Shown here piece by piece: positions 15,878 through 18,763 of a DNA stretch of 41,681 bases. The DNA lies in assembly GCA_964438315.1 (NCBI GenBank), contig CAYTKH010000002.1:1-41681 (forward strand), written 5' to 3'. The position numbers and the translations under genes were made by a program. Positions within the stretch are counted from its first letter, which is position 1. Each line of letters starts with the position of its first letter. The notes beneath the pieces are model-generated. The model had not been told where the DNA came from, made no database searches, and saw nothing but the letters and a program-made list of their open reading frames with translations. Origin of the DNA: an uncultured Muribaculaceae bacterium. Lineage in GTDB: Bacteria; Bacillota_I; Bacilli_A; RF39; UBA660.

Positions 15878-18763
15878 GTGGAAAAATATAAATTGATAAA
15901 AAAAAGTTTAACAGGAATCTTATTAGCAGTTTCAGCAACAGTTGCAAGTCCTAATGCTACATTATATACTATGGCAAAAGACTCAATAGAAAAAGATATA
16001 GAAAGTGATTGCTTACATCATGATCATGCAGAATGTGGCGACTGTGATCATGACCATTTAGAAGACGAATTATTGGAAACATTATCTCTTAAAGGTGCAA
16101 GTAATAACCCAACTACTAAAAAGGTAGTTTATAAATCAGATAAGAATGGAACTCATATTAAAACTGTAAAGACTACTGTTACAAAAGATGATGGTAACGA
16201 AATTACTACAAGTACTAAAAAAGAAAAATGTAATATAGTACCACAAATAGAATTTATAGATAACAATAATGGAAAATATACAATAAAGTTCTATAGAGGA
16301 TGTACAAAATGCAACTATAAATTAAAAGTTTATAAGAAAATTGTTGTTGGTGATTATGATGATGATTCAATTCGTGATTACTACGATAAAAAAGATGAAA
16401 ATCAAAAAAAGAAACTTAAAAATGAATTTACAATATTAACAAACAAATGTGAATCTATTGGTAAGAGTAATCATAATAGAAAAATTAAAGTTAAACTTAA
16501 AAATGGTAAAACCTATACAGTTAATATAAAAGAAAAATGTTCATTGATACCAAATATAGAGTTTACAGATAATCTAGATGGTACACATGATATTGAATTT
16601 TATAGGGAATGTGATGATTGTGGTTATACCCCAAAAATATTTAGAAAAACTGGTGTTTGTAAATATGATGAATATGAACATTGTGAATATTGTGATAGCA
16701 TTAAAGACAATGATAAAGAAGTTGAATTAAAGGAAAAGAATAACTTTCAGATAATAGAAAACAGTTATCAATATAATGATGATGGAACTCATACAAGAAC
16801 TATTAAAGTTAAACTTAAAAATGGTAAAATATATTCTATATTGAGTGAGTCTGAATGTGACAAAATCATCAAAGATGAATATAAAAGTAATGGGGATGGA
16901 ACTCATACAGTTTTAACTAGTGAAGATTGTAGAAAATGCCATAATCATGATGAACAAACAAAGGAAGAAAAATGTAGTTATAAAGATGATAAATGCACAA
17001 AATGTAATAGTAAAAATATTGGTGGTGGAAATCACGGTGGCTCAACTAATGATCATGAAGAATGTAATTTTGTTTTAACTGATGTGGAATATGAATCAAC
17101 TAACAACGGTAAACATATTGAAAAAAGGATTTATGAATGTTCTTGTGGTAAAACAAAGATTGAAAGTACAATATTTGATTGTAAATATGATAAATGGATT
17201 AGTATAAGTGATTCTTTAGAAAAAGGTGAGTGTAAATATTGTGAGTATGAGGTAACAAGAAAGCACAGCTTAAATAAAGAAGAACTATCAACATATGATA
17301 AAGCTGATATGCATATTAAAAAAGTAAGAGAGTGGTGTTCAACATGTGATTATGAAAAGTCATCTAGTTACCGTGAAAGTTGCAATTATGTAGATGATAA
17401 ATGTTCTGATTGTGGTCATGTAAAAGAAATAAGTCAAGATCATAATCATAAGTTTGATAAAGTAATAAGTACTAAAACAACATATAATGGAGATGGTACA
17501 CATACAACTACTACCCAATATGGATGTGCTTGTGGAAAAACTAAAACAGAAACTAAAACAGCAAATTGTAACTTTGGAGCTTGGATATCAAATGGAGCAG
17601 TAGGAGAAAAATGTACATGTCTGGTATGTAAAGGTGAAAAGACAAGAAAGCACAAACTTAATAAAACTGTCACTTCTACATATATAGGTAATGATAAACA
17701 TAATACTAAAACTACTGAATCATGTGCGACATGTGATTATACAAATTCGACTGAAAAAGAAGAAAACTGTAATTATGTAGATAATAAATGTTCTGGTTGT
17801 AAACATGAAAAGGATATAAATAAAGATCATGATCATAAGTTTGATAAAGTAATAAGTACTAAAACAATATATAATGGAGATGGTACACATACAACTACTA
17901 CCAAATATGGATGTACAATATGTGAAGGAACTAAAACAGAAACTAAAACAGCAAATTGTAACTTTGGAGCCTGGGTATCAAATGGAATAGATGGAGAAAA
18001 ATGTATATGTCCAGTATGTAAAGGTGAAAAGACAAGAAAACATAAACTTAATACTAGTACATCATATACAAGTTTAGGTAACGGAAAGCATAAAATAATA
18101 ACTACCGAATCGTGTTTAAATTGTGATTATACAAATTCAACTGAAAAAGAAGAAGATTGTAGTTATGGTGCTTGGGTATCGAATGGAGCAACTGGTGAAA
18201 GATGTACATGTCCAAAATGTAAAGACGAAAAGACAAGAAATCATTCTTTAAATATAGAACGTACTGCTTGGGTTTATGTTAGTGAAGATATTCATAAAAG
18301 AACTGTAAATGAAGAATGTACAACATGTGATTATACAAATTCTTATGATGAAACATCAAGTTGTAAATATGGTAATGAATATACACTTTCAGATGGGTTG
18401 ACTGTAGTTGCAGATTGTCCTGATTGTGGGCATCAAGATGTCCGCCATACACATGATTTACAGTATAGTGAAGAATCTGTTGCAAACAATCCAAATATAT
18501 GCTATAATAGCATCACCAGTTGTAAAAGTTGTGAGTATAAAGTAACAACACCTATTCCTCATAGTTTTGCTGACAATGGTTTTGAAGACGAAGGTGAAAA
18601 ACAACAGGAATGTTCTAAGTGTGGAGCTACTAAATGGGTTCCTATAACCACTACAAAAGATGCACTACTAGGATTGAAGTATATGCTATTGGGTGTAGTT
18701 GATTATACATGCGTCAAAGATTGCTTACGCGAAGACGATAGAAAAGTATTCAGTAAAAAATAG
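15878..18763 (+). CDS. Secreted Cys/His-rich repeat protein (~960 aa, about 65 Cys), function unknown
   Basis: GTG at 15878 (or 15872) lies 6 nt after GGGGGT. Signal peptide KKSLTGILLAVSATVASPNA. His/Cys cluster CLHHDHAECGDCDHDH. There are more than 15 iterations of a module [ND]G-x-H-x(5-8)-C-x(1-2)-C...C-x-[YF], for example NGDGTHTTTTQYGCACGKTKTETKTANCNFGAW and GEKCTCLVCKGEKTRKHKLN. No LPXTG motif and no C-terminal TM segment. Confidence 0.75.
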   Translation: MEKYKLIKKSLTGILLAVSATVASPNATLYTMAKDSIEKDIESDCLHHDHAECGDCDHDHLEDELLETLSLKGASNNPTTKKVVYKSDKNGTHIKTVKTTVTKDDGNEITTSTKKEKCNIVPQIEFIDNNNGKYTIKFYRGCTKCNYKLKVYKKIVVGDYDDDSIRDYYDKKDENQKKKLKNEFTILTNKCESIGKSNHNRKIKVKLKNGKTYTVNIKEKCSLIPNIEFTDNLDGTHDIEFYRECDDCGYTPKIFRKTGVCKYDEYEHCEYCDSIKDNDKEVELKEKNNFQIIENSYQYNDDGTHTRTIKVKLKNGKIYSILSESECDKIIKDEYKSNGDGTHTVLTSEDCRKCHNHDEQTKEEKCSYKDDKCTKCNSKNIGGGNHGGSTNDHEECNFVLTDVEYESTNNGKHIEKRIYECSCGKTKIESTIFDCKYDKWISISDSLEKGECKYCEYEVTRKHSLNKEELSTYDKADMHIKKVREWCSTCDYEKSSSYRESCNYVDDKCSDCGHVKEISQDHNHKFDKVISTKTTYNGDGTHTTTTQYGCACGKTKTETKTANCNFGAWISNGAVGEKCTCLVCKGEKTRKHKLNKTVTSTYIGNDKHNTKTTESCATCDYTNSTEKEENCNYVDNKCSGCKHEKDINKDHDHKFDKVISTKTIYNGDGTHTTTTKYGCTICEGTKTETKTANCNFGAWVSNGIDGEKCICPVCKGEKTRKHKLNTSTSYTSLGNGKHKIITTESCLNCDYTNSTEKEEDCSYGAWVSNGATGERCTCPKCKDEKTRNHSLNIERTAWVYVSEDIHKRTVNEECTTCDYTNSYDETSSCKYGNEYTLSDGLTVVADCPDCGHQDVRHTHDLQYSEESVANNPNICYNSITSCKSCEYKVTTPIPHSFADNGFEDEGEKQQECSKCGATKWVPITTTKDALLGLKYMLLGVVDYTCVKDCLREDDRKVFSKK
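17336..18250 (+). repeat. In-frame tandem duplication, period ~387-390 nt (about 2.4 copies), inside the Cys-rich gene
   Basis: 17438-17660 and 17825-18047 are nearly identical. For example, aagtttgataaagtaataagtactaaaaca...ggagatggtacacatacaactactacc has one mismatch, and actaaaacagaaactaaaacagcaaattgtaactttggagc is identical. A third, partial copy starts at about 18113. Confidence 0.85.

Follow-up and report, generated by a model that had tools for sequence, protein, structure and literature searches.

What is the function of a long exported protein, built largely from cysteine and histidine motifs, that stands at the head of an operon for SipW signal peptidases and their secreted substrates? 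The question is raised by a contig of an uncultured Muribaculaceae bacterium (GTDB lineage Bacillota_I, Bacilli_A, RF39, UBA660; GenBank assembly GCA_964438315.1, contig CAYTKH010000002.1, positions 1 to 41,681 of the forward strand). We refer to this whole stretch of 41,681 nucleotides as the window, and to the product of its open reading frame (ORF) 15878–18763 as the window protein. The initial annotation, made from the letters and their translations, described an orphan architecture of Cys/His modules, proposed structural zinc sites among other possibilities and suggested a functional link to a SipW-dependent fibre. The explanation that we prefer, and to which we give an even chance, is that the window protein is an exported and tethered zinc-knuckle rod that heads a SipW cassette and serves as an accessory, an anchor or spacer, to a surface fibre.

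The window protein has 65 cysteines (6.8%) and 36 histidines (3.75%) among its 961 residues, compared with 1.17% cysteine and 1.24% histidine in the remaining 36 ORFs of the window. Its cysteine content is the highest in the family described below. There are 25 neighbouring cysteine pairs spaced as CxC or CxxC, against 7.8±2.5 in shuffled sequences (maximum 17, n = 5000); pairing of this kind had been noted in the initial annotation. The motifs quoted there were all recovered by pattern search with the same spacing. The sequence [ND]-G-x-H-x(5-8)-C-x(1-2)-C occurs six times exactly and ten times with a relaxed pattern, CxCxxCK[GD]EKTR[KN]H[KS]LN occurs three times (at amino acids 579, 709 and 776), CxxCDY occurs four times and a knuckle followed by C-x-[YF] occurs nine times.

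Repeat detection defined the module as a unit of ~58 amino acids with seven conserved ligand positions. A hidden Markov model (HMM) of 58 positions, iterated on the repeats of the window protein itself, has the pattern N-x-x-G-T-H-x7-C-x2-C-x11-C-x-[YF]-G-x-W-x~9-E-x-x-C-x2-C-G-x3-T-R-x-H. The model identified 235 units across 36 family proteins. For the window protein, 11 units were found in the family-wide search and 13 with a looser threshold. In the second of its two repeat zones the unit reads G-x-H-x7-CxxC-x11-C-x-[YF], then a second knuckle with a terminal histidine.

The frequencies of the ligand columns were calculated over 146 near-full-length units. Cysteine is found at column 49 in 100% of these, at column 46 in 99%, at column 14 in 95% and at column 17 in 87%, whilst histidine is found at column 6 in 92% and at column 57 in 78%. 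Column 29 is either cysteine (73%) or histidine (25%). All seven ligand positions are kept in 90/146 units. Where the histidine at column 6 is missing, there is a histidine at column 27 instead: H27 is present in 12/12 units without H6 and in 4/134 units with H6 (Fisher p 1.5e-14, a generous value as the units are related).

An AlphaFold2 model of one unit from the window protein (amino acids 733–790, equivalent to residues 744–801 of the 972-amino acid ORF), based on 67 aligned units, has a predicted local distance difference test score (pLDDT) of 90.9. The model consists of two β-hairpins with strands at 5–13/20–28 and 42–45/52–55, and there is a CxxC at the tip of each: C14 and C17 are flanked by the first pair of strands, and C46 and C49 by the second pair. 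The compensation between H6 and H27 arises because these residues face each other across the predicted hairpin. The ligand columns and the model together show four Cys/His ligands per module and a CxxC knuckle at the hairpin tip, as in zinc ribbons and zinc knuckles.

The alternation of cysteine and histidine at column 29, the mutual exclusivity of H6 and H27 and the conservation of the histidines argue for metal ligands rather than disulfides. The modules are thus probably structural metal (zinc) knuckles, which would fit the alignments and the model better than disulfides. We infer a first metal site formed by H6 (or H27), C/H29, C46 and C49, and a second site around the C14/C17 knuckle. Zinc knuckles had already been put forward in the initial annotation, and the idea fits the His/Cys tetrads, the swap at column 29, the H6/H27 compensation and the hairpin model, as well as a set of weak matches to zinc fingers and rubredoxins. 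The latter comprise C2H2 arrays matched by the unit profile (Aart with an expectation value, E, of 2.9e-6, CTCF with 5.8e-5 and others ranging to 1e-3, where no stretch passes alone), rubredoxins (E ~0.2) and partial Foldseek matches over 32 residues to the XPA zinc finger (probability 0.72–0.75, weak). The profile matches to finger arrays and rubredoxins are best read as shared ligand spacing, not homology.

Zinc ribbons, knuckles and finger arrays (XPA, TFIIB-type, rubredoxin and C2H2) resemble the unit in having a CxxC at the hairpin tip and four Cys/His ligands per module. However, those types work inside the cell, for the most part in binding nucleic acids or carrying redox iron, whereas the array of the window protein is exported and comprises ~25 tandem knuckles. 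A metallothionein, as a small cytoplasmic Cys-cluster protein that lacks regular secondary structure, was also considered as the identity of the protein and rejected, given the 961 amino acids, the N-terminal signal, the conserved histidines and the confident β-hairpins. The streptococcal Pht proteins are another point of comparison. These surface proteins of Firmicutes begin with a lipoprotein-type signal and have several zinc sites repeated along the chain; the sites are HxxHxH triads without cysteine, and the proteins act in zinc acquisition and have no link to sipW. The present family would share with them the surface location, the lipoprotein-type signal and the repeated (here predicted) zinc sites, but HxxHxH triads are absent here by motif search.

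The window protein was then compared with family libraries and protein collections. Nothing in Pfam or NCBIfam reaches its cut-off, in keeping with the initial view that no Pfam-type family is recognizable, and no characterized family was matched. The best library match is the collagen-flanked surface repeat (CFSR, PF19079), with 20.6 bits against a cut-off of 27 over one stretch (amino acids 663–698). No other curated repeat model gives a signal, and this one aligns to the G-D-G-T-H ... C-x-x-C ... C-x-F part of the unit. One cassette orthologue (L013) passes the CFSR cut-off at 30.3 bits whereas ten family relatives score nothing, and the window protein differs further in having no collagen repeats flanking the array; its translation contains no collagen-like Gly-X-Y tracts.

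The description of the architecture as an orphan did not survive a deeper search. An exhaustive phmmer/HMMER search over 1.84 billion representatives (E <= 1e-3) produced 35 related cluster representatives, which are 201–1255 amino acids long and have E values between 1.6e-60 and 7e-4; 20/35 are related at E <= 1e-10. All 35 derive from metagenome assemblies, and their clusters contain one to five sequences each. Ten of these relatives received no assignment from Pfam or NCBIfam, and look-ups of ten clusters gave no name or accession, so that no source names them. Word-index protein searches using the whole protein or the unit alignment returned the query alone or nothing, and literature searches on the CFSR repeat and on Cys-rich proteins with SipW found nothing relevant. 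By sequence, the window protein is a member of a small, uncurated family of Cys/His knuckle-repeat proteins (P0002–P0036 plus the cassette orthologues). Runs of N were seen inside the Cys/His genes of four metagenome-assembled genomes (MAGs; L005 7904–9961, L013 7824–10964, L019 6620–8974 and L020 6112–8975); no gene is called at the Cys/His locus in L019, and the gene is split in two in L020. As the repeats seem to break assemblies, and the gene is then missed or divided by gene callers, the true size of the family is probably underestimated.

The link to the fibre comes from gene order. The window gene heads a cassette of seven genes (Table 1). The closest relative (P0002, from a Firmicutes MAG) heads the same seven, there in the order Cys/His protein, sipW, a ~250-amino acid protein with an SGTYA/KY signal, a ~880-amino acid protein, a second sipW, a ~200-amino acid protein and a ~540-amino acid protein, with 31% identity to the window for the Cys/His protein and 32–59% for the other six. 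Additional cassettes were reached by three routes. From SipW, four more MAGs (uncultured Bacilli or Tenericutes, mostly from mouse gut) were found to have an ORF containing the unit that ends just before sipW. From the 223-amino acid secreted protein of the window, with 55 relatives, five look-ups led to five distinct cassettes, each with a unit-containing ORF upstream of sipW. From the Cys/His family itself, a subfamily alignment led to three further cassettes, and 5/5 distant members (P0005, P0008, P0009, P0017 and P0036) lie inside this cassette type.

Across the 19 distinct cassettes (the window and 18 other loci), a unit-containing gene is directly upstream of sipW in every case (19/19), with a gap of −1 to 55 nucleotides. 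The flanks of the cassette vary with the locus and include a ribosomal protein operon, ftsK, relA, spoIVA with mur ligases, and phosphoketolase. Because the flanks differ, we conclude that the Cys/His gene travels with the cassette and not with the neighbourhood. The functional link to the SipW operon suggested by the initial annotation is therefore strengthened, as all 19 cassettes start with such a gene; the mechanism is what we infer.

The other parts of the family proteins bear on that mechanism. In most relatives the anchor leads into spacers that are acidic or of low complexity and then into the array, after which come a conserved cap module, a further acidic spacer and a short terminal motif. 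By regular expression, 39/44 family members have a hydrophobic stretch at the N-terminus and 19/44 have a lipobox-like motif (e.g. LSGC, LTGC or LGGC); the window protein has the hydrophobic N-terminus, LTGILLAVSATVA, without a lipobox. Clusters of His and Asp (HDHDH, HEHEH) follow soon after the anchor in at least 10 members, the cluster CLHHDHAECGDCDHDH of the window protein among them. The cap module of the window protein falls within its best-matching regions to P0002, P0003, P0019 and P0022, and equivalent segments are visible in P0007 and in the L003 orthologue. A basic residue followed by a hydrophobic-x-hydrophobic motif is present in the last 16 residues of 26/48 members compared with 13% of random windows, a four-fold enrichment; examples are KVLVLK, KTLSLIP, KELVLN and KVFSLD... 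The window tail, RKVFSKK, resembles this motif by eye but does not match the exact expression.

We also observed a helical segment of ~50 amino acids between the anchor and the array in many relatives (P0005, P0009, P0013, P0014, P0016, P0018, P0028, P0029 and P0034–P0036, together with L004 and L005), which is absent from the window protein. Its pattern is Y-x-G-x-S-I-V-E-A-L-x3-G-Y-x-S-S-F-x2-R-x2-L-A-x3-G-I-x2-Y-x-G-T-A-E-Q-N-x2-L-L, and Pfam gave no match to it. This segment could be a wall-binding element.

The body of the protein is a tandem array of ~25 β-hairpin knuckles, or ~12 two-hairpin units, and each knuckle is probably stapled by a metal ion in tetrahedral coordination by Cys and His, for which Zn2+ is the likeliest candidate. 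Outside the cell, such an array would form a rod that is both long and stiff. Combined with a tether at the N-terminus, spacers and a conserved distal end, this rod has the make-up expected of a stalk that holds something off the membrane. Its most likely role in the cassette would be that of a stalk or spacer, anchored in the membrane, by which the SipW-dependent fibre is held or started at the cell surface. The architecture, the family, the conserved ligand pattern, the confident hairpin model and the gene order are observed, and zinc binding, membrane tethering and the role as anchor or spacer are predictions.

The closest parallel in operon structure is the tapA-sipW-tasA operon of Bacillus subtilis. 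Its first product, TapA (YqxM), is expressed together with sipW, localizes with the membrane and donates a strand to start TasA filaments (PMC10151520). Like tapA, the window gene encodes an exported protein, is first in the operon, is tightly coupled to sipW and is followed by a subunit gene. In contrast, TapA has 253 amino acids and an Ig-type fold, and donates its N-terminus, whereas the window protein has 961 amino acids of Cys/His knuckles and appears to use its N-terminus as a tether. No TapA-related match to the window protein was found in Pfam or NCBIfam at E <= 1. The likeness to TapA is thus one of operon position and possibly of job, with an unrelated fold.

The Clostridium perfringens operon comprises sipW, bsaA, bsaB and bsaC, and its subunits polymerise by donor-strand exchange (PMC11580942, PMC7395162). 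The BsaA oligomers, which are SipW-dependent, are anchored to the membrane by a component that was not identified (PMC11580942). As in the window, a SipW peptidase shares one operon with several secreted subunits or paralogues; in contrast, the C. perfringens papers mention no Cys/His-rich gene (PMC11580942, PMC7395162), and the window subunits have no detectable similarity to TasA. A more specific proposal, which we hold tentatively and think somewhat unlikely, is that the window protein represents a new class of fibre anchor: a membrane-tethered rod of ~25 zinc-stapled hairpins that would nucleate or hold a SipW-processed, donor-strand-type surface fibre through its conserved C-terminal end, doing the job of TapA with an unrelated fold, so that fibre attachment in these uncultured gut Firmicutes would depend on extracellular zinc.

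Several results weigh against the tethered, fibre-associated zinc rod. With regard to the metal sites, a test for co-loss of C17 and H57, made to assign the second site, found no association (p 0.37), and none of the PDB structures compared with the unit model by Foldseek matched significantly (best E 2.3). With regard to tethering, the window protein lacks a lipobox, as well as the long spacers and most of the acidic ones seen in its relatives, and it may be released instead of tethered. With regard to the fibre, the functional evidence is guilt by association throughout. By eye, the C-terminal tail had seemed to mimic the mature N-terminus of the candidate subunit (KY[IVT]Sx[IL]D); this was rejected with a position-specific scoring matrix of that N-terminus, for which 17/47 tails fall below the 5% level against 46% expected, taking the best of 12 windows. 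A TapA-style strand mimic at the C-terminus is thus not supported at the sequence level. Homology of the 223-amino acid protein to TasA could not be demonstrated either by PDB, Pfam, Foldseek or hhalign searches.

A further difficulty is that the unit is also found outside sipW cassettes, in unrelated surface proteins. A partial Oscillospiraceae protein (L009 3–5090; 1696 amino acids, 103 cysteines) combines leucine-rich repeats, 32 His/Cys units of ~29 amino acids and a type I dockerin; here the module is a spacer in a cellulosome-style surface protein. A Pseudobutyrivibrio protein of at least 2999 amino acids (L010) also contains units, and for a clostridial relative (P0026, Clostridia) there is no sipW within the 480 nucleotides that remain on the contig. 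The position next to sipW is therefore a property of the 19/19 cassettes and not of the unit as such. The occurrence in unrelated surface proteins indicates a general extracellular stalk element, of which one lineage became fixed in the cassette; the module is a generic stalk and not a fibre-specific device.

This distribution is what would be expected if the protein were a free-standing surface stalk or adhesin, whose array projects a binding end (the cap and tail) away from the cell and which is co-regulated with the fibre genes without contacting the fibre. The gene also has a strong promoter candidate of its own upstream, and there is no sequence mimicry of the subunit N-terminus. Even so, a position that is kept in all of the cassettes, with so short a gap to sipW despite differing flanks, would be difficult to account for if the protein had no link to the fibre, physically or in assembly, and we regard a free-standing stalk as unlikely.

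The zinc-knuckle rod as a fibre accessory also has to be weighed against an extracellular metal buffer or store, in which the Cys/His sites and the HDHDH cluster would capture zinc or another metal at the cell surface for uptake or protection, much in the spirit of the Pht proteins. We consider this improbable. With 65 Cys and 36 His the protein is very rich in ligands, and the His/Asp clusters just after the anchor recur in at least 10 family members; but the ligands are in a fixed pattern inside confidently predicted hairpins, which is typical of structural rather than exchangeable sites. Moreover, the cassette has no conserved gene for metal transport or its regulation: a downstream P-type ATPase at 26826 was considered as a conserved partner and rejected, as it is absent from the orthologous loci.

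More improbable again is a matrix protein cross-linked by disulfides or other covalent bonds, in which intra- or intermolecular bonds of the cysteines would harden the fibre or matrix; disulfide or thioether cross-links in a fibre had been among the possibilities of the initial annotation. An exported protein with a high cysteine content and an odd total (65) might suggest this. However, column 29 alternates between Cys and His, the histidine positions are conserved like the cysteines, and some orthologues have more His than Cys (e.g. L013, with 59 H and 39 C). No thiol oxidase, radical-SAM or similar enzyme was found in the cassette by Pfam/NCBIfam scans or in the locus annotations. The apparent nature of the hosts, as anaerobes of the gut in a reducing environment, also counts against cross-linking.

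A chance frame, a low-complexity region or a decaying pseudogene has a negligible probability: the protein clusters with no other at 90% identity in the protein collection, has no record as a called gene and has no close relative among species-representative genomes, but a run of 961 stop-free codons at 26% GC has a chance of ~2.5e-38, there are candidates for a promoter and a ribosome-binding site, and 35 relatives share the conserved ligand columns as well as the 19/19 synteny. The frame is intact and there is no sign of a pseudogene, a possibility that the initial annotation had raised.

The features of the gene and the cassette are collected in Table 1. The promoter candidate is the top-scoring site of a consensus scan across 15500–20500. 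We assign the translation start to the GTG at 15878 rather than to an alternative ATG at 15845, because the −10 box ends one base before the latter, at 15844, and because GGGGGTG precedes the GTG. With ~25 nucleotides from the promoter to the start, a leader riboswitch is unlikely, and an Rfam scan of the window matched no RNA family.

Table 1. Features of the Cys/His knuckle-repeat gene and of the genes that follow it in the cassette (aa, amino acids; positions are those of the window)
Feature	Position	Strand	Basis or remark
Promoter candidate, sigma-70 type, TTGACA-17-TATTAT with extended TG	15816..15844	+	Consensus scan, 11/12 matches
Shine-Dalgarno-like GGGGGTG, 5 nucleotides ahead of GTG start	15866..15872	+	Read from sequence
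Coding sequence, Cys/His knuckle-repeat protein	15878..18763	+	961 aa plus stop; intact frame
Putative signal peptide or membrane anchor at the N-terminus, aa 1-33, with basic n-region, LTGILLAVSATVA	15878..15976	+	Sequence, motif pattern
Acidic His/Cys cluster CLHHDHAECGDCDHDH, aa 45-60	16010..16057	+	Motif search
Repeat zone 1, aa ~85-370; a long β-hairpin with knuckle units, in three divergent repeats of ~105 aa	16130..16987	+	Fragment-versus-self BLASTP, unit HMM
Repeat zone 2, aa ~395-860; seven ~60-aa units forming a 129-aa super-repeat	17060..18457	+	Self-BLASTP, unit HMM
Recent tandem duplication inside zone 2; 390-bp period, 2.0 copies, 84% identity	17384..18167	+	Tandem Repeats Finder
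C-terminal cap module, aa ~875-925, C-Y-x-x-I-T-x-C-x2-C ... H-x-F ... C-x2-C-G-x3-W-V-P	18500..18652	+	Family comparison
C-terminal tail ending ...DDRKVFSKK	18653..18760	+	Sequence
sipW paralogue 1, 247 aa, C-terminal transmembrane segment plus charged extension	18769..19512	+	5 nucleotides 3′ of the Cys/His stop
Secreted protein, 223 aa, SipW-substrate-type signal SGTYA/KY (/, putative cleavage point), candidate fibre subunit	19611..20282	+	Sequence, relatives
Large surface protein, 880 aa, N-terminally anchored	20356..22998	+	Orthologues with Cadherin-like domain
sipW paralogue 2, 185 aa	23013..23570	+	Peptidase_S24 and S26 matches; TIGR02228 74 bits
Protein of 198 aa, SipW-type signal VVTYS/KY	23574..24170	+	Sequence; conserved in cassettes
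Protein of 531 aa, SipW-type signal GVTYA/YF; last conserved cassette gene	24174..25769	+	Sequence; conserved in cassettes

The first sipW paralogue matches the NCBIfam SipW model with E 1.8e-28, which is below the model cut-off, and TIGR02228 with 92 bits against a cut-off of 52. Its extension includes another hydrophobic stretch as well as a repetitive tail of very high charge (…ELRRYRERPEEKKDE…), and is kept in the L001 orthologue.

The gene for the 223-amino acid protein adjoins sipW in all cassettes, and the SGTYA/KY signal is invariant in 42 relatives. An alignment of these shows that the mature N-terminus is extremely conserved, as KY[IVT]Sx[IL]D[LIF][AT]DEARVAKW. The model of the protein (pLDDT 72) has a β-sandwich core and a disordered N-terminal segment. 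No sequence match was found in the PDB by phmmer and profile searches, nor in Pfam with the 42 members, and the top 50 Foldseek matches of the model are generic sandwiches only. Alignment of the 223-amino acid family to TasA using hhalign gave a probability of 0.4% (with a TasA sequence entered by hand); this non-significant match places TAEQT in the last strand of the 223-amino acid protein against FEATQ of TasA. The features of the protein are compatible with a donor-strand subunit but are no proof of one. In three cassettes the subunit gene is tandem-duplicated in near-identical copies (L002 1575–3114, L013 12025–14528 and L014 12687–15192). In the 880-amino acid protein, the anchor is followed by SCSCTSG and a proline-rich NNPGENNPGE repeat, and its orthologues range from ~650 to ~1620 amino acids (797–1619 by gene calls, 653–1627 by ORFs).

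Directly upstream of the cassette, at 11913–15780 of the window, there is a set of genes resembling vanG/vanC of the D-Ala-D-Ser type, encoding a D-Ala-D-X ligase and a peptidase of the VanY/VanXY type. The set also includes genes for a membrane acyltransferase_3 protein and an alanine/serine racemase, which together resemble a VanT in two pieces. The region 10404–11913 contains no ORF of at least 120 amino acids, hence no two-component regulator was seen beside this set. At 37767–40602, close to where the window ends on the right, a large serine recombinase (Resolvase plus Recombinase) is followed by a YhcG/DUF1016 PDDEXK nuclease; a mobile element may have its border at this pair.

SipW-dependent fibres (TasA, CalY, BsaA and archaeal relatives) are widespread as biofilm scaffolds and surface filaments. 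To our knowledge, the way in which such fibres are attached to the cell is known only for Bacillus, through TapA. A SipW peptidase with several secreted subunits is a known kind of system; the Cys/His first gene is a new conserved component of it, which is named in no database and is present in every examined cassette of this type. The hosts of the cassette are uncultured low-GC gut Firmicutes. A long extracellular array of probable zinc knuckles would be a rare design among exported bacterial proteins and, if the zinc-knuckle reading is true, it predicts that the rod carries about two zinc ions per ~60 residues.

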